This document shows positions 44,989-52,922 of a stretch of 64,000 nucleotides of DNA, piece by piece; the first letter of the stretch is position 1; every line of letters begins with the position of its first letter. The translations under genes and the position numbers were made by a program. The notes below the pieces were generated by a model. The model searched no databases. It was given only the letters and a program-made list of their open reading frames with translations, and was not told where the DNA came from. Source of the stretch: a virus (lineage: Duplodnaviria; Caudoviricetes); the IMG/VR virus record IMGVR_UViG_2700989045_000001, positions 2,317 to 66,316 of that record; one strand, written 5' to 3'.

Positions 44989-45306
44989 TCAAACTTTTAG
45001 CTGTTTTATAACTTCTTCGGCTTCAACTTCCTGATTCCACACACGCTCTAGGAGCTCTTTAGGGATTGCCTTTTCAATAATCCAATAGGCATCCTCTAGG
45101 GTATCCTGAGGGGCCAAGTAGCCTCGCTCACGTAGCGTTTGGACTGCATCTAGGGTTCTCACGGGGTTCTCTTCATGTTGCTCCCCGTAGCGGTGAGCTA
45201 ATGCTCTCATTGCATTGTTTAGACCATTCCATCCCATTACAGGATAACGCTCGCCTTTCTTTGAATCCATAAAAATGATATGTGTTGTTCTTGCTAGTTT
45301 TAACAT
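44989..45306 (-). CDS. hypothetical protein
   Basis: ORF directly after the RNAP C-half. Confidence 0.55.
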   Translation of the reverse strand: MLKLARTTHIIFMDSKKGERYPVMGWNGLNNAMRALAHRYGEQHEENPVRTLDAVQTLRERGYLAPQDTLEDAYWIIEKAIPKELLERVWNQEVEAEEVIKQLKV

Positions 45307-45323
45307 TGTCTGTGTTCTCTGTG

Positions 45324-46358
45324 TTAAGAAAAGAAATATAGTGAATTAAGTACTTCACGGACGTCTAATGTACCTAATGGCGGTGGTGGTGTTAGGTTCA
45401 TCGCCTCCCCTCCATTGAGTTCCCAGATTTCCCGTAGGATGTCACGGTCTGCATACATGCCCACAAAGGATTCACGGATGCTATCAGCTAGGTCTGGTGT
45501 ATCGGCACATTGAGTAGCCATTGAGTCGTGGATATGGTGAAAATAAGTAGAGTCACAACGCAACGTGGAATCACATAGGTGAGTCGCATCATGAGTATGG
45601 ATGAAGTTCGGAGCGGCACCTGATTTCATCTTCTTCTCATTCAATCGTTTACCTGTTGTATTAGGTACACGGTAGAATAGTCGCATGACTAACTTACCAT
45701 TCTCCTTGATTACCACGGGTTTACTCTCTGTATTAGGGTTATCCTGATAGAAAGTAAAACCTAGGTGGTTAGTAACCTTGAAAGGAATGTCACGGGCTCC
45801 TAAGCTCTCAGCCCATGATTGAATCAGGTCCATGATGGCCACTGTTGATGGACATACAACACCCATCGCACCACGAGTTAAGCGCACCATTACTGTGACA
45901 GCCTTAGCTCTATGGTCTTTCCACACATCAGCACCGCTACGGTCAAAGTAAGGCTCTAGGGTTTTCTCTAGGATTTCCTCGGCTCTCTCGTCGATTCTCT
46001 CCTGAATACTATCTCGATTACCGTACTCTGTTGAACCGTAAAGATATGTCATTACGATTGACTTGGTATCCTTACGGTTAATACCTAGGGATTTCCACCA
46101 CTCTGCTACCTCAGTTAAGAGCTCATCATTAGCAATGCGCTCTAAGGTCTCTAGCAGATAGCCCACTGGGGAGCCCTTAGGAGCCTGTTTAAGCACCTCA
46201 AGAAGTACAGGGTCCCCGAATAAAGCTTGGGTCACAACTTCAGCCACAGCACCATATAAGTCACTTGGTTTAGCATTACCGTGAGCAAAAGCCATGATTG
46301 CTTCGTCTGTCATGCCTTGAGCTATAAAGATTTTTAGTTGGTCGTCTGTGAGAGTCAT
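45324..46358 (-). CDS. T7-type RNA polymerase, C-terminal part
   Basis: DLYGAVA, RKDTKSIVMTYLYGS (motif B), APNFIHTHDA, IHDS (motif C), S.YFFS C-terminus; own RBS AGGA. Confidence 0.93.
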   Translation of the reverse strand: MTLTDDQLKIFIAQGMTDEAIMAFAHGNAKPSDLYGAVAEVVTQALFGDPVLLEVLKQAPKGSPVGYLLETLERIANDELLTEVAEWWKSLGINRKDTKSIVMTYLYGSTEYGNRDSIQERIDERAEEILEKTLEPYFDRSGADVWKDHRAKAVTVMVRLTRGAMGVVCPSTVAIMDLIQSWAESLGARDIPFKVTNHLGFTFYQDNPNTESKPVVIKENGKLVMRLFYRVPNTTGKRLNEKKMKSGAAPNFIHTHDATHLCDSTLRCDSTYFHHIHDSMATQCADTPDLADSIRESFVGMYADRDILREIWELNGGEAMNLTPPPPLGTLDVREVLNSLYFFS

Positions 46359-46367
46359 GAGGAATCC

Positions 46368-46598
46368 TTAGTAGAAATTAACGGTTAGTTCTTGTTCTGC
46401 TGTATCAAGTGAGATAAGTAGGATATCTTCTCCTTTATGATGGACTTCATACACGTTGATTTGATTGCCTTCAACCTTACGCTCCAATTGAGCCTTAGGC
46501 ATTAGTGTATGTGCTATACGCACTGCACTGTTTAAGTCTTCCACAGTAGCATTACCGTAAATGATGTTGTGGTTTGTTTCTTCGATGATAATTGACAT
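46368..46598 (-). CDS. hypothetical protein between the RNAP halves
   Basis: 76-aa ORF with RBS-like GAGAG. Confidence 0.6.
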   Translation of the reverse strand: MSIIIEETNHNIIYGNATVEDLNSAVRIAHTLMPKAQLERKVEGNQINVYEVHHKGEDILLISLDTAEQELTVNFY

Positions 46599-46610
46599 AG
46601 TGGTTTCTCT

Positions 46611-46757
46611 CTATTTCTGAGCAAAGGCTGTTTCAGCCCATGCAATAACTAAGGTTAAGAATTGACGGATAACTTCTAATCCTAAAAGGATGAAGAAAGA
46701 AAGTAGTAGGCTCCCCGTTAGATACCAAAGGATAGCCCAAAGTAACGTATAAATCAT
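46611..46757 (-). CDS. small membrane protein between the RNAP halves
   Basis: MIYTLLWAILW... hydrophobic; RBS GGGAGG right after a palindrome. Confidence 0.55.
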   Translation of the reverse strand: MIYTLLWAILWYLTGSLLLSFFILLGLEVIRQFLTLVIAWAETAFAQK

Positions 46758-46767
46758 GATGCCTCCC

Positions 46768-46788
46768 AAATCAGACACTGTCGGATTT
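46768..46788. repeat. 21-bp dispersed palindrome copy 15
   Basis: AAATCAGACACTGTCGGATTT, 3 nt past the RNAP N-half stop. Confidence 0.95.
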
Positions 46789-46791
46789 GAA

Positions 46792-48516
46792 TTAAAGTGT
46801 AGAGCGTAACTTAGCAATACGTGCTAGGAGCCCTTGAGTCCCATTAGGGGCCACATTTACACCATAGGCACCATGTAGGTCTCTTGACATTGCTGAATAG
46901 TGCTGAGCACCATTACAAGTCCCATCCATAGGGATTGGGATGTCGATAACTGCATCCATACCATTATCGTAGTATTTCTGCATCTGTTCACAGGCCGCAA
47001 TGAATAACCACGGGTCGTCTGTGTTCTTCCAGTCTTCCACGGTGTCCACAGGGTCCTTCGCAATGCTCTTAATGAACTCTGTGTTCTCTTCAGTCCACTT
47101 AATGCGGTCATTCCAAGACTCTTTATCTTTACCAAAGCAGTTGGCTGTGTGGACCTTAAGCCACTCTAGGGCTCTTTCAGGGTCTTTACTGGTACTCAAG
47201 GCTTTCCCTTCAGCAAACTTTAGTAAAGCTTTTTGTAGACAAACACCTTGCGTAGTCAATCCGGCACTTAATGGATAAACACGCATACGCCAATCTAGAT
47301 TATCAGGTATATAAATACGAGAATAATCACAGTAATCATTTGCTACCTCTAAAGCTGTTTTGATAACTCGGTTCTTAGATTTAACACTGGTGAGCTGTTT
47401 GCGCCAGTTAACATATTGAACCATTTTAAAGCGAGCCTCATCTAGCTCTACTTTAAGTTTATATTCCTTACTTGATATGCCAATCTTAGCCAGCATAGCA
47501 CGCACCCATGCACCAAACTTCTTACCGTGAATATCTCGGTTTTCCGGTGTTATCCCTAAGGCTTCACTGTTCTTATCAATGATAACTCTTAGGTCACTTG
47601 TACGTTCCTTGTGGGGACGTTGGGGAATATCGAGGAACCACTTATCAAAGAAGAGTTCATCATCAAACACTAGTTCATTAGCTGTGTCTAATACAAACTT
47701 ATTAACTTTGAATGGTGTGGCTTGAATCTTGTTCACCGCTTCATACACTCTAGGGATGGCGGCGGGGCCATGAGTTTTGTTAGTAGCCTTAGGCATGTTT
47801 CGGATAAAAGGTTGCTGCATATCTGCATCCCAGTATCCACCAGTATTAAGTCCAGTCCACGGACGAGGAGGAACAACCATAGGACGGAACACAGTAGCCA
47901 GCTCGGCCATGAGGTCTTCCTGCTCCTCTTCCCACTCATAGAACTTCTCAGTGGCTTCTATGACGTGTATTGTTTTATTGCCTTGTTGCCTCTTAGTGAT
48001 TCTAAAAGATGCATCACTTACCTCACACATCAAAGAGATTAGTTTGTAACCCACTCGGTACGCTTGGGGAACCGATAGCCCCTTTTCAATGTTCTCACAT
48101 AGCCTTACACACAGCGCTGCTAATTCCTTGCGGTCCGTTGTTTCCGCAATGATACATGTACGCATGGTCTGTAAAGCTAATTGAAATGGGTCATGACGTT
48201 TGAATACCTCTACAGCTATATGAGGTTTTTTTGCTGTGTAGCCATCAGCAAATTCCTGTATAGTACGGGAAAAAGGCTTCAATAAGGTCTTAATACGTTT
48301 CAAGGTAGTAGATGCTTCCATCCATTTCCCTGCCTCTTTTAGACCATCTTGACGCTCTTTGAATCGCTCAGTACCTAAGGCTTGCATATTACTTTCTATT
48401 TCAACGTTGGCCTTGATTAATTCAATATCACTAACATTAACATCCGTTAGTATATTAATCTGCTCCACGTTTAAGCCTTGTTTTATATATTTAGCTACTT
48501 CTAAGTATTGTAACAT
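46792..48516 (-). CDS. T7-type RNA polymerase, N-terminal part
   Basis: PMVVPPRPW...GGY, N.DWRMRVY, PMDGTCNGAQHYSAM.RD (motif A); ATG 48516 follows AGGAG. Confidence 0.93.
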   Translation of the reverse strand: MLQYLEVAKYIKQGLNVEQINILTDVNVSDIELIKANVEIESNMQALGTERFKERQDGLKEAGKWMEASTTLKRIKTLLKPFSRTIQEFADGYTAKKPHIAVEVFKRHDPFQLALQTMRTCIIAETTDRKELAALCVRLCENIEKGLSVPQAYRVGYKLISLMCEVSDASFRITKRQQGNKTIHVIEATEKFYEWEEEQEDLMAELATVFRPMVVPPRPWTGLNTGGYWDADMQQPFIRNMPKATNKTHGPAAIPRVYEAVNKIQATPFKVNKFVLDTANELVFDDELFFDKWFLDIPQRPHKERTSDLRVIIDKNSEALGITPENRDIHGKKFGAWVRAMLAKIGISSKEYKLKVELDEARFKMVQYVNWRKQLTSVKSKNRVIKTALEVANDYCDYSRIYIPDNLDWRMRVYPLSAGLTTQGVCLQKALLKFAEGKALSTSKDPERALEWLKVHTANCFGKDKESWNDRIKWTEENTEFIKSIAKDPVDTVEDWKNTDDPWLFIAACEQMQKYYDNGMDAVIDIPIPMDGTCNGAQHYSAMSRDLHGAYGVNVAPNGTQGLLARIAKLRSTL

Positions 48517-48529
48517 TCTTATTACTCCT

Positions 48530-48550
48530 AAATCCGACACTGTCTGATTT
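48530..48550. repeat. 21-bp dispersed palindrome copy 16
   Basis: AAATCCGACACTGTCTGATTT abutting the RNAP RBS. Confidence 0.95.
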
Positions 48551-48796
48551 GAACTTTGTTAGGTTGTTTAATCAAAGGCACTAATATAACTAATGCCTTT
48601 TGTTAAATAACTTACTTCACTAGATATGGTCTAAGTGCGTCGATTATGGTGTGAACTGCTGCGATATTATCATAACCGTACTTAACCATAAGCATAAAAC
48701 CAAGGATTATTAATAGGATTATAGACATGAAACTACATGCCTTTAATAGGTTCTTAATCATATTATATACTCTATATATTAACTAAAGATAAGTAA

Positions 48797-48834
48797 TAAT
48801 AGATACTAATAGATACTAATAGATACTAATAGAT
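48797..48834. repeat. 10-bp tandem repeat in AT-rich tract
   Basis: (TAATAGATAC)x3 plus a partial copy. Confidence 0.85.
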
Positions 48835-48848
48835 TCTTTTAGCTCTTT

Positions 48849-48865
48849 CTATTAGGTGTACCTTT
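48849..48865 (-). promoter_or_regulatory. phage RNAP promoter (variant)
   Basis: AAAGGTACACCTAATAG. Confidence 0.65.
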
Positions 48866-48952
48866 ATATTTTAATTGGCTTCCTTACTGTGCTTTTCTAG
48901 TCGCCAGCGGTAGAAACAAATGATAAACATGATAATCAATAGTGTAATTCCC

Positions 48953-48973
48953 ATATCCGACAGTGTCCGATTT
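48953..48973. repeat. 21-bp dispersed palindrome copy 17 (variant)
   Basis: ATATCCGACAGTGTCCGATTT. Confidence 0.88.
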
Positions 48974-49075
48974 GTAATGTTTAAAGTCTCTGTATGGCTC
49001 TCTAAGCCACTTTAAGTTGAACTGGTACGAATGCCCGTCTAAACCTAAACGGGCACCTTAGGGGCTCACAGGGAG

Positions 49076-49608: not shown

Positions 49609-50757
49609 TTATTTAAACATTGTATTTGCTGCTGCTAGGGCATCTTTAAGAATCTCTAAGGCTTCATTCTCGCCAAACTTATCAGAATGAACACGTTTCA
49701 ACTGTTTGTTGTATGCGCGTTTAATGGCTGCTTTAGGATTCTTAAGCCCTTGCAATGCGGCTAGGTCCAGCTCTAACACATCCCACCAATCACGCCCACG
49801 CCATGAGCTTGCTATGGCTCCCATAGGGTTCTCGTTCGATTCCTCATCAGTATCAAACGGGGCGCTGTCATCTTCTTGAGGTTCCTCATTAGGTTGCGCA
49901 TCTTCCTGTTGTGGTTCCCCTTGGTAGCCACAAGAATCCATGAGTAAGCGTAACAGCTTATTCTTAAGGTCCGTATTAGTAAGAGCTAACACTTGAGCAA
50001 ATGTAAGGTCTAACGGGTTGTTTTCACCTGCATTAGTTGATTGCTCTTGATTAGTGCCTTGCTCGCCTTGGCCTTCGTTAGCTCCCTGCTTAGCCTTGAT
50101 ATCTTGCCATTCAGCGAACCATTCTTTGATAGTCTTTTCAGACTTGAATGCGAACTCTGCTACTTCCTGAAGCGTTGCACCTTGCTCAAACATAGCAAAG
50201 GCTTCAGCTTTAGTTTTCTTATCAATGGCCGCTGTAGCCCGTTCCACTGTTTTAGCTGAACATCCAAGAAGTGCTGCTATTTCTTGTTTGCGGCCATGAG
50301 CTCGCCAGTAACCACCATCCAGTAAATAGAGTTGTTTAATTGCGTTCTGGTAATCGTTGCCCTTGAAGTTAACACCATTGCGGCGGTTGGCTGTCATTGA
50401 GTAGTAGATAGCATCTTTCAATGTACCTTTGACAATGTCAGCGTGAAACGTGCCTAATTTCGCAATGAGAGCGGCGCTAGTGCGTTGGAAGCCATCAACC
50501 AATACTCGGGCACCCGCTTCAATCACGGAGCCGTCAGGCATTGATACAGGCTCTGTGAGCTCTACTAGCTCAATGGCTGGAAAGTTATTTGCCTGCCCTG
50601 CTAGCATGGCCTCCGCATAGTTCTCAATGGCTTGCTTATCGACACTTGCACGTTGCTGTGTACCTGCATCAATAACGATTGTTGATAGATTGACTTGCTC
50701 ACGGATTGCACCGACGAACATTGATTGGATATCTTCTACGTTAATTAGTTGTGACAT
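49609..50757 (-). CDS. ParB/Srx-like N-domain + two HTH + acidic linker + DnaJ-like C-domain protein
   Basis: Q.R...D...I.NYAE.M, LVDGFQR..A, AN..NG (ParB/StrR-like); QEIAALLGCSAKTV and LQEVAEFAFKSEKTI HTHs; WWDVL.L...IKRAY......HSDK J-like domain. Confidence 0.8.
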   Translation of the reverse strand: MSQLINVEDIQSMFVGAIREQVNLSTIVIDAGTQQRASVDKQAIENYAEAMLAGQANNFPAIELVELTEPVSMPDGSVIEAGARVLVDGFQRTSAALIAKLGTFHADIVKGTLKDAIYYSMTANRRNGVNFKGNDYQNAIKQLYLLDGGYWRAHGRKQEIAALLGCSAKTVERATAAIDKKTKAEAFAMFEQGATLQEVAEFAFKSEKTIKEWFAEWQDIKAKQGANEGQGEQGTNQEQSTNAGENNPLDLTFAQVLALTNTDLKNKLLRLLMDSCGYQGEPQQEDAQPNEEPQEDDSAPFDTDEESNENPMGAIASSWRGRDWWDVLELDLAALQGLKNPKAAIKRAYNKQLKRVHSDKFGENEALEILKDALAAANTMFK

Positions 50758-52546: not shown

Positions 52547-52590
52547 TTTAACATATTTGTAACATAAAAATATAAAGGTACACCTTATAG
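52547..52590 (+). promoter_or_regulatory. late phage promoter, 44-bp repeat copy 1
   Basis: TTTAACATATTTGTAACATAAAAATATAAAGGTACACCTTATAG. Confidence 0.8.
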
Positions 52591-52800: not shown

Positions 52801-52844
52801 TTTAACATATTTGTAACATAAAAATATAAAGGTACACCTTATAG
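52801..52844 (+). promoter_or_regulatory. late phage promoter, 44-bp repeat copy 2
   Basis: Identical 44-mer. Confidence 0.8.
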
Positions 52845-52878: not shown

Positions 52879-52922
52879 TTTAACATATTTGTAACATAAA
52901 AATATAAAGGTACACCTTATAG
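52879..52922 (+). promoter_or_regulatory. late phage promoter, 44-bp repeat copy 3
   Basis: Identical 44-mer, upstream of terS. Confidence 0.8.

Follow-up and report, generated by a model that had tools for sequence, protein, structure and literature searches.

The window analysed here, a 64,000-nucleotide stretch of a viral genome of the Caudoviricetes (IMG/VR record IMGVR_UViG_2700989045_000001, positions 2,317 to 66,316), encodes a T7-type RNA polymerase (RNAP) in two pieces, with the break between motifs A and B. The question raised by this locus is whether the pieces are joined into a single polypeptide, are the remains of a broken gene, or are made as two chains of one enzyme.

Two polymerase genes and the DNA between them

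The gene for the N-terminal part of the polymerase (N-half) likely starts at ATG 48516, which with its AGGAG Shine-Dalgarno (SD) sequence stands directly after a palindrome copy; the full open reading frame in the ORF list begins at an in-frame GTG at 48540 (46792..48540). The N-half matches Pfam families PF14700 (E 4.4e-09) and PF00940 (E 3.7e-35), aligns to T7 RNAP residues 239-341 and 390-572, and comprises the promoter-binding N-terminal domain, the thumb, a DxxGR-type motif and motif A. It ends just past motif A with ...DGTCNGAQHYSAMSRDLHGAYGVNVAPNG, followed by a 15-residue tail. The motif A aspartate is invariant in 36 N-halves, as are the aspartate and both arginines of the DxxGR-type motif, in which the four commonest residues at the glycine position are G (20), M (12), S (2) and Q (1). 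The gene for the C-terminal part (C-half) has its own SD, AAGGA, 6 nt 5' of its ATG, and its product begins just ahead of the helix leading to motifs B and C, with 29 extra residues followed by KPSDLYGAVA. It matches PF00940 (E 9.6e-36), aligns to T7 RNAP residues 615-882 and carries the fingers with motif B, the specificity-loop hairpin, palm motif C and the C-terminal foot (ending YFFS). All 49 C-halves have the motif B lysine and tyrosine, and the motif C His-Asp pair is at least 90% conserved in the 49-sequence alignment, in which the truncated P0048 ends inside motif C.

Table 1. Positions of the polymerase genes, their motifs and neighbouring features in the window
Feature	Position	Strand	Remarks
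Nearest upstream phage-type promoter, AAAGGTACACCTAATAG	48849..48865	-	1 mismatch
Palindrome copy	48530..48550	.	Directly upstream of N-half SD and ATG
N-half gene, T7-type RNAP	46792..48516	-	574 aa from ATG 48516; ORF list and Pfam
DxxGR-type motif, DWRMR	47281-47295	-	In N-half
Motif A catalytic Asp codon, GAT	46924..46926	-	Residue 531 of the 574-aa N-half; T7 D537 by alignment; codon checked
N-half seam tail, TQGLLARIAKLRSTL	46795..46839	-	15 aa; not in unsplit RNAPs; predicted helix 563-573
Palindrome, AAATCCGACAGTGTCTGATTT	46768..46788	.	21 bp; directly 3' of N-half stop, 5' of the GGGAGG SD of cistron 1
Inserted cistron 1	46611..46757	-	48 aa, hydrophobic, membrane-like; SD GGGAGG 5' of ATG 46757
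Inserted cistron 2	46368..46598	-	76-aa orphan protein
C-half gene, T7-type RNAP	45324..46358	-	344 aa; ORF list and Pfam
C-half seam extension, MTLTDDQLKIFIAQGMTDEAIMAFAHGNA	46272..46358	-	29 aa; not in unsplit RNAPs; two short helices predicted
Motif B	46038..46064	-	Lys99 (46062-46064) = T7 K631; Tyr107 (46038-46040) = T7 Y639; codons checked
Motif C, His277-Asp278	45525..45530	-	T7 H811-D812 by alignment; codons checked

The halves are thus separate cistrons with an SD, start and stop apiece, in different frames and with 433 nt between them. The PF00940 profile is divided cleanly between them (positions 5-118 in the N-half, 119-364 in the C-half), and these two genes hold the only PF00940 matches in the whole genome. 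The break corresponds to residues ~564-566 of T7 RNAP, where the matching segments are contiguous and the alignments of the two halves abut (N-half up to 572, C-half from ~567). An earlier sequence-only reading had described the tail, the 29-residue extension, the contiguity in T7 RNAP, and a gap holding a palindrome and two ORFs with a separate ribosome-binding site for the C-half, and the ORFs and alignments bear it out on each of these points.

The gap (46359-46791) contains two small cistrons. Cistron 1, which takes a 68-aa form from TTG 46817 in the ORF list, matches no Pfam or PHROG family; cistron 2 likewise has no Pfam or PHROG match and no homologue was found for it, its best score in an Atlas search being only 0.80, which is not evidence of relationship. 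An assembly artefact, which the sequence-only reading had named as a finding that would overturn it, is ruled out by independent contigs that span the junctions: metagenome contig X1 record 3 (319 nt) covers 46626-46924 with five differences, and an X2 contig runs from the C-half start into the gap. The cistron 1 region is retained in X1 record 3 and X2 record 9, and cistron 2 is swapped for 193 unrelated letters in one relative's contig. The gap palindrome, 11+11 nt and delimited at 46767-46789 in its inverted-repeat form, is one of 22 copies dispersed through the window at cistron boundaries, and homologous copies lie between the halves in relatives' loci L001, L002, L003/L006 and L004.

The promoter motif AAAGGTACACCTTATAG has 12 matches in the window at up to three mismatches, with 0.28 expected and none of 100 shuffles reaching 12; the sequence-only reading had put the number at about 13. 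The motif ends in ...TATAG at +1, as in the SP6 and T7 promoters, which it resembles. Between the nearest upstream promoter and the end of the C-half gene there is no further promoter motif and no terminator-like site, so the four cistrons (N-half, two inserts, C-half) are most likely co-transcribed.

Conservation of the split and of its seam

Both halves have relatives of the same form, with a further 35 N-halves and 48 C-halves found, all free-standing. The N-half matches are 569-615 aa long at 42-78% identity, plus one 319-aa fragment, and 47 of the 48 C-half matches are 339-365 aa long with 99-100% coverage and 50-79% identity, the remaining one, of 294 aa, stopping within motif C. Among long proteins, the one close match to the N-half is the 903-aa gene model of the window's own genome, after which come unsplit proteins of 800-980 aa, none above 33% identity; in a 50%-clustered library, just two representatives reach E<1e-30, followed by unsplit proteins at about 35% identity. 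The short proteins P0106, P0113 and P0196 were considered as independent splits and set aside, as they start inside or upstream of motif A and look like truncated gene calls. In a FastTree phylogeny the 36 N-halves form one clade against six unsplit outgroups with support 100. The split is clade-wide and old, ancestral to a group of related marine and fish-pathogen phages.

Megablast of the locus against phage records gave no match, and locus scans of viral contigs with a single C-half or a 3-sequence alignment recovered no relatives; the 49-sequence alignment recovered one locus among viral contigs and three among metagenomes. Every examined C-half has its own SD and ATG, and all examined relatives are two-cistron. 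Aeromonas phages 1233 and MQM1 have the halves annotated as separate CDSs with only 21 and 20 nt between them, which leaves no room for an intron; in both, GGAGGG precedes the ATG of the C-half. Elsewhere the gap extends to 574 nt (L003) and 837 nt (L004), and the number of cistrons between the halves is 0, 2, 3 or 4, indicating that the halves need not be contiguous. The three or four cistrons at the seam in other relatives are unrelated to those of the window, and a comparison of the window's gap ORFs with the L003 ones showed no similarity. The window thereby departs from the gene order of the two Aeromonas phages, and its two gap genes are a later, lineage-specific insertion beside the dispersed palindrome.

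The seam itself carries extensions on both sides. The N-half tail is 37-45 aa long in 26 of 36 clade members; the window's 15 residues correspond to its proximal, conserved part, and the distal part has apparently been lost in the window's lineage, a secondary shortening. The tail follows an amphipathic-helix pattern, G-T-Q-G-L-x-E-R-L-x-x-L-R, with G559 and R571 present in all 36 N-halves, L563 in 35, L567 and L570 in 33 each and R566 in 32. The C-half extension follows the pattern L-T-D-x-Q-L-x-x-L-I-x-x-G-x-S/T-D-x-x-I...H-x-N-x-x-P, with G15, D18 and P31 invariant in 49 C-halves, L8, I21 and H26 in 48 and I12 in 45; its helices are predicted at 564-572 and 577-586 of a joined model (pLDDT 83-88). 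In these alignments both extensions are conserved about as strongly as the catalytic motifs, which makes the tails plausible dimerisation elements, as the sequence-only reading had proposed. The C-extension was also likened to LuxR-type helix-turn-helix domains, whose first two helices we took it to resemble, and the idea was dropped when Pfam gave just EAD11 (E 0.24).

One chain, a broken gene or two chains

A genuine two-subunit, non-covalent T7-family RNA polymerase, encoded by separate cistrons of one operon, is the reading we favour, with a probability of about 0.85. No recoding signal, intron or intein was found at the window junction.

A self-splicing intron, or other RNA-level removal of the gap, would make the two ORFs exons of one 903-aa polymerase, and just such a product is on record as the genome's own gene model, in which N-half residues 1-559 are joined to C-half residues 1-344. 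This joined sequence is predicted with high confidence to fold as a complete T7 RNAP (pLDDT 94.1, pTM 0.89; TM 0.69-0.75 to T7 elongation complexes), with an intercalating hairpin at 171-188 and a specificity-loop hairpin at 769-791, a result computed on one joined chain and thus speaking for completeness of the fold and not for heterodimerisation. The N-half predicted alone reaches a pLDDT of 76.6, below 50 over motif A, and this lower confidence may come partly from a shallower alignment (36 rows vs 108). ORF-bearing introns are common in phage polymerase genes, and such introns are suggested for the MQM1 DNA polymerase in the available part of its genome paper (PMC10410586). Nevertheless, an Rfam scan of 45000-49000 at E<=1 yielded no group I or II intron or other relevant match, just two sub-threshold miRNA-like matches outside genes, and the folding of the 480-nt putative intron does not stand out from that of its shuffles (z -0.95; 16 of 100 as good). 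The boundaries of the gene model, with exon 1 ending in G and the intron starting with ACUCA and ending with CUC, do not fit the rules for group I or group II introns, and exon 2 would start exactly at the SD-preceded ATG. The supposed intron is moreover filled by two cistrons with their own SDs, and the polymerase is still split in the two Aeromonas phages despite the 20-21 nt between their halves. Finally, the join removes tail residues conserved in 32-36 of 36 homologues. The 903-aa product is a gene model, not a measured protein; the comparative data speak against it, and it is judged mistaken. Splicing is accordingly very unlikely.

It is also very improbable that the gene is a pseudogene in two pieces, with the phage relying on host RNA polymerase. 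Placing the catalytic aspartates on two chains could inactivate the enzyme, and the tail in the window is shorter than in most relatives; against this, both pieces are open and conserved, with all catalytic residues intact, across dozens of sequences whose identity goes down to 42-50%, the 12 SP6/T7-like promoter copies are ones that only such an enzyme would be expected to read, and a T7 RNAP engineered with a split between the same motifs (residue 601) is described as active in the available part of its report (PMC4299498).

Production of one polypeptide by recoding, through stop read-through, frameshifting or ribosome bypass, draws on phage 1233, where the halves are in frame with a single stop codon and 18 nt between them. 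The near-identical junction of MQM1, however, has its halves in different frames, the window's halves are out of frame with two translated-looking cistrons intervening, the L003 and L004 gaps are longer still, and the C-halves have initiation signals of their own, so that recoding is to be regarded as extremely improbable. A split intein ligating the halves after translation has a negligible chance of being correct: the C-extension ends in a conserved H-x-N, often followed by S or T, which distantly recalls the HN plus nucleophile of intein C-termini, but its His and Asn are not adjacent, the next residue is Ala in the window (T/S/A = 26/15/5 of 49, with no conserved nucleophile), the extensions total 44 aa (15 + 29; up to ~75 aa in relatives), far below the size of the HINT fold, and Pfam gives no intein family at E<=0.01.

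Comparison with known polymerases and a possible mechanism

To our knowledge, natural heterodimeric T7-family RNA polymerases are known only from N4-like phages, with all catalytic motifs on one chain. In the available part of its description (PMC4496689), N4 RNAPII consists of gp15 (269 aa) and gp16 (404 aa), which align to non-overlapping parts of T7 RNAP, the cut separating the thumb/DX2GR part from the palm; gp16 holds motifs A, B and C, in agreement with the sequence-only reading. The same text reports conserved blocks at the new chain ends as a proposed dimerisation element, and mentions two N4-like genomes in which gp16 is itself divided between two genes, at a location that this part of the source does not state. 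Both N4 RNAPII and the present polymerase are T7-family enzymes from two separately encoded chains, but here the cut falls after motif A and places the catalytic aspartates on different chains (motif A in the N-half, motif C in the C-half), as had been proposed and as holds for the 35 and 48 other halves. The present polymerase is also full-size (574 + 344 = 918 aa vs 673), keeps the T7-like N-terminal domain (PF14700) and would read SP6/T7-like promoters. The N4-type heterodimer, by comparison, is minimal in size with a truncated N-terminal domain, depends on the cofactors gp1 and gp2 and occurs together with a virion RNAP. Residues 6-99 of the N4 gp16 chain (6dt7_B) align within N-half residues 457-563, with the N-half continuing upstream, which places the N4 break upstream of motif A and supports the earlier suggestion that the two splits arose independently.

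The engineered split of Segall-Shapiro et al. 2014 provides another parallel. As given in the available part of that report (PMC4299498), T7 RNAP cut at residue 601 into a 'core' and a 'sigma fragment' needs both fragments for activity, SynZIP zippers raise its activity more than tenfold, and 36 viable cut sites are listed. Both cuts fall between motifs A and B and leave D537 on the N fragment and K631, Y639, D812 and the specificity loop on the C fragment; the present cut is natural and lies ~35 residues earlier (~565 vs 601), and its extensions are native and conserved where the zippers are foreign. With the T7 and SP6 RNAPs the polymerase shares the predicted fold at the TM scores given above, the motifs and a promoter ending in ...TATAG, so that Pfam matches, motifs and the fold of the joined model all place it in the T7-like family; those enzymes are, however, one polypeptide without seam extensions, which this one is not, and identity to them is only ~22-30%. 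Phage genes interrupted by introns or homing endonucleases, such as the MQM1 DNA polymerase gene as described in the available part of PMC10410586, likewise present an essential polymerase in pieces with small ORFs between, but here there is no endonuclease and no intron signature, the split is kept with nothing between the halves, and the intervening ORFs differ among lineages.

In the favoured two-subunit reading, the N- and C-subunits would be translated separately from one operon and come together non-covalently to form a single active site, the cut falling in a surface loop where the palm passes into the fingers. The N-tail helix and the two-helix hairpin of the C-extension may pack as a helical clamp that holds the halves together, a natural counterpart of the zippers on engineered split T7 RNAP. 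The two-subunit enzyme would read the 12 SP6/T7-like promoters and would need both halves to do so, since the N-half supplies the intercalating hairpin and the C-half the specificity loop. In the window's lineage, the distal N-tail would have been lost and the two small cistrons inserted beside a dispersed copy of the 21-bp palindrome. With a tail of only 15 aa, the window's enzyme could be weakened if the distal tail matters for assembly.

A more elaborate scheme, which we consider unlikely, sees in the cut more than an accident that is tolerated: the seam extensions would form a dedicated heterodimerisation mini-domain, the active site would be put together from two chains that contribute a catalytic aspartate each, and the C-subunit, bearer of the specificity loop, would be a dissociable, sigma-like subunit. 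The supply of C-subunit relative to N-subunit would then be tuned by the palindrome and the variable small cistrons, including the one for a membrane protein; the split may stem from a palindrome-plus-SD boundary module inserted in loop-coding DNA, and gene cassettes may since have used the seam as a landing pad.

If the two-subunit reading is correct, a whole phage clade, including isolates used or proposed against fish pathogens, builds a T7-family active site from two chains, cut naturally between the same pair of motifs as engineered T7 RNAP. It would offer a natural test case of polymerase domain partitioning and a possible source, for use in gene circuits, of orthogonal split RNAPs that nature has already optimised and of small heterodimerisation tags. 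In literature on phage split RNA polymerases, CHOED and vB_AsaP_MQM1, the main texts do not describe the split, which supplementary tables might mention; the CHOED genome note, in its whole text, names just a 'DNA-directed RNA polymerase', and 'RNA polymerase' occurs 0 times in the available text of the MQM1 paper (PMC10410586). For annotation, the RNAP halves should stay separate and not be merged into one CDS. The seam between the genes has also gained a second use, as the place where small cistrons are inserted beside the dispersed palindrome. By eye, a weak likeness to the promoter motif (10 of 17) can be made out immediately upstream of the gap palindrome, which we do not claim as a promoter.

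A T7-type RNA polymerase in two pieces

The phage genome, a single contig of 66,316 bases of which the window covers 64,000, carries one copy each of two ORFs (N-half and C-half) encoding the parts of a T7-type RNA polymerase (RNAP). The split between motifs A and B proposed by the sequence-only reading is confirmed by the Pfam RNA_pol profile, which is cleanly cut with positions 5-118 falling in the N-half and 119-364 in the C-half, and by alignment to solved T7 RNAP, where residues 239-341 and 390-572 align with the N-half and residues 615-882 with the C-half. Motif A (T7 D537) is thereby assigned to the N-half, and motif B (K631, Y639) and motif C (H811, D812) to the C-half. In a multiple alignment that includes 46 unsplit homologues, the break falls in a short loop between ...VNxxP and xxP(A/S)D(I/L)Y, at T7 residues ~564-566. 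First in the gap comes a stop, then the palindrome AAATCCGACAGTGTCTGATTT; a 48-aa hydrophobic ORF opening with GGGAGG-ATG and a 76-aa ORF follow, and AAGGA-ATG leads into the C-half. The description given by the sequence-only reading is accurate in all details checked.

Coordinates of features in the window
Feature	Position	Strand	Remark
N-half ORF	46792-48540	minus	N-terminal two thirds of T7-type RNAP; probable start ATG 48516 behind AGGAG
C-half ORF	45324-46358	minus	C-terminal third of T7-type RNAP
Gap	46359-46791		433 bp
76-aa ORF region	46382-46595		replaced in a related contig
Palindrome, 21 bp each	977, 7763, 13627, 17431, 21807, 26447, 29149, 31414, 34061, 38173, 40044, 41930, 43343, 44392, 46768, 48530, 48953, 49585, 52217, 54806, 59243, 61311
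DxxGR-type motif	47281-47295		DWRMR
Promoter before polymerase operon	48849-48865
Tandem repeats	~48804-48833	minus	three copies
Clustered perfect promoters	52574-52590, 52828-52844, 52906-52922	plus	within 350 bp
382-aa protein	49609-50757	minus

The same two pieces occur in Aeromonas phages 1233 and MQM1 as separate annotated 'RNA polymerase' CDSs. The spacing is 21 nt in 1233 and 20 nt in MQM1, GGAGGG precedes the ATG of the C-half in both, and the proteins are 52-61% identical to those of the window. A large protein collection yielded 48 relatives of the C-half, 47 of them 339-365 aa long (99-100% coverage, 50-79% identity) and one truncated at 294 aa, together with 35 relatives of the N-half (569-615 aa, 42-78% identity) and a 319-aa fragment. 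No fused close relative was found there except a 903-aa entry, the genome's own gene model, and the closest unsplit polymerases are only 33-37% identical or less. A quick FastTree run on N-half bodies groups 36 split N-halves as one clade against six unsplit outgroups (support 100). The split is clade-wide rather than a local accident. The Asp and both Arg of the DxxGR-type motif are invariant in the 36 clade members, and the Gly position is occupied by Gly (20), Met (12), Ser (2) or Gln (1), these being the four commonest residues. A more distant protein, P0241 (305 aa, 33% identity to the C-half), begins MCQLSEPANLYG... exactly at the same seam; it represents a split that arose independently in a different RNAP lineage or else a truncated gene call. 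According to the available text of PMC10410586, the DNA polymerase of MQM1 is divided among three ORFs, with two others interrupting them, one an HNH endonuclease, suggesting that fragmented genes are a common feature of these phages.

The joined gene model folds with a pLDDT of 94.1 and a pTM of 0.89 (108 aligned sequences) and matches T7 RNAP elongation complexes with TM scores of 0.69-0.75 (E ~1e-40); the two pieces between them thus supply an entire polymerase, with no part lacking. The N-half folded alone reaches a pLDDT of 76.6 and a pTM of 0.52, with confidence below 50 at residues 207-235, 406-412 and 530-545, the last including motif A. This low confidence is only suggestive of a need for the partner, the alignment being shallower at 36 rows vs 108.

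Taken as a whole, this is a real, conserved and naturally split T7-family RNAP of the heterodimeric T7-like kind, here with a different cut and a lineage-specific cistron pair inserted at the seam. A genuine split with separately translated halves is given a probability of about 0.95, and the two halves together very probably form an active enzyme. The independence from N4 RNAPII that had been proposed is borne out, as the N-terminus of N4 gp16 aligns within the N-half and the cut therefore lies at another place and arose separately. Experimental precedent comes from engineered T7 RNAP, for which the available text of PMC4299498 gives 36 viable split sites, activity only with both fragments when cut at residue 601, and a more than tenfold gain in activity when zippers are added. 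The residue-601 cut also lies between motifs A and B; it is a precedent for a working split of this type and for a benefit from helical additions at the cut. The available portions of the literature on split phage RNA polymerases and on MQM1 yielded no published description of this split RNAP.

One polypeptide or two

One alternative is that the gap is removable in an intron-like manner and the halves form a single 903-aa polypeptide, as in the product on record for the 66,316-base contig, which fuses N-half residues 1-559 directly to the C-half Met. This gene model is probably wrong because no intron signature is present (no intron or other relevant match in Rfam at E<=1, and folding of the putative 480-nt intron no better than shuffles, z -0.95), 'exon 2' begins exactly at an ATG with a Shine-Dalgarno (SD) sequence before it, relatives remain split with only 20-21 nt separating the halves, and the fusion drops the conserved N-tail described below; the supposed intron is moreover filled with cistrons. 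Recoding across the junction to yield one polypeptide is unlikely since the halves are out of frame in the window and their frame relation differs between the near-identical relatives 1233 and MQM1. A dead polymerase gene is contradicted by two observations: both halves are conserved, together with every catalytic residue, and the SP6/T7-like promoter AAAGGTACACCTTATAG is present in 12 copies in the window vs 0.28 expected, close to the approximately 13 conserved promoters previously claimed.

Every split form has residues added at both new ends, whereas the loop is uninterrupted in the unsplit enzymes of the multiple alignment. The N-half continues into an N-tail with the motif G-T-Q-G-L-x-E-R-L-x-x-L-R (G559 and R571 in 36/36, L563 in 35/36, L567 and L570 in 33/36, R566 in 32/36), predicted to be helical in the fold of the N-half alone. 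The C-half starts with an extension of 29-30 residues (G15, D18 and P31 in 49/49, L8, I21 and H26 in 48/49, I12 in 45/49), for which the joined model predicts two short helices (pLDDT 83-88). Because both additions match the catalytic motifs in conservation, they are likely to be translated and to have a function, and the chances are about even that they act as an assembly clamp, a putative small helical bundle keeping the halves together. A split intein is excluded, because the additions are too small and have no conserved nucleophile.

Probable gap cassette and dispersed palindrome

The N-tail is longer in 26 of the 36 N-halves, with ~25 further residues ending in an amphipathic ...LT...N.....IG segment, and in the other 10, that of the window among them, it ends with the proximal helix. 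Short tails occur at three separate places on the N-half tree; because the window's five-member short-tailed group is nested within long-tailed forms, the window's tail is a secondary truncation. Tail length matches gap content in loci with visible context: the loci of 1233 and MQM1 combine a long N-tail with abutting halves, and a short N-tail accompanies two cistrons in the gap of the window, three in L003/L006 and four in L004 (relatives' loci from contig and metagenome scans), with the partial locus L005 resembling L003. The gap cargo varies from lineage to lineage and showed no similarity, Pfam and PHROGs searches of the small gap proteins gave no match, and a homologue search for the 76-aa ORF found none. 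In record 9 of metagenome run X2, a related contig, the 76-aa ORF region is swapped for 193 unrelated letters and the flanking C-half and 48-aa ORF are retained, which looks like cassette exchange within the gap. The two gap genes are accordingly best described as a putative lineage-specific cassette, presumably acquired at a palindrome-marked recombination joint.

The gap palindrome is one of 22 dispersed copies of a 21-bp element, AAATCnGACAnTGTCnGATTT, in the window vs 0 expected. Nearly every one is intergenic, with an SD and a start codon following a few to ~25 nt downstream, and the copy at 48530-48550 lies immediately before the N-half. Related or variant palindromes are dispersed in the loci of 1233, MQM1, L003 and L004 (5, 4, 5 and 2 copies), and each of the five distinct complete junctions has one, placed after the proximal N-tail and ahead of the C-half start; in the Aeromonas phages it falls within the coding sequence of the N-tail. 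The points at which three X2 contigs part from the window coincide exactly with copies of the palindrome (46767, 46778 and 48530). Because copies occur at cistron starts, at all junctions and at these divergence points, the palindrome is read as a likely cistron-boundary element that would also mark recombination joints. It could be the site of a dimeric protein, an RNA hairpin or a processing site; since positions 6 and 16 are usually non-complementary, the reading leans towards a dimeric DNA-binding protein over a hairpin.

Promoters and neighboring sequence

Each of the three clustered promoter copies is preceded by the same 15 nt, GTAACATAAAAATAT, and together they look like a repeated promoter cassette opening a plus-strand gene block. 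The tandem repeats of TCTATTAGTA lie just downstream of a promoter and fall in the leader of the predicted transcript carrying the polymerase operon. The 382-aa protein has homologues in 1233 and MQM1 annotated as similar to streptomycin-operon regulatory protein (a ParB/StrR-like name), and by eye the sequence ...KRAYNKQLKRVHSDKFG... towards its C-terminus looks like a J-domain in which HPD is replaced by HSD.
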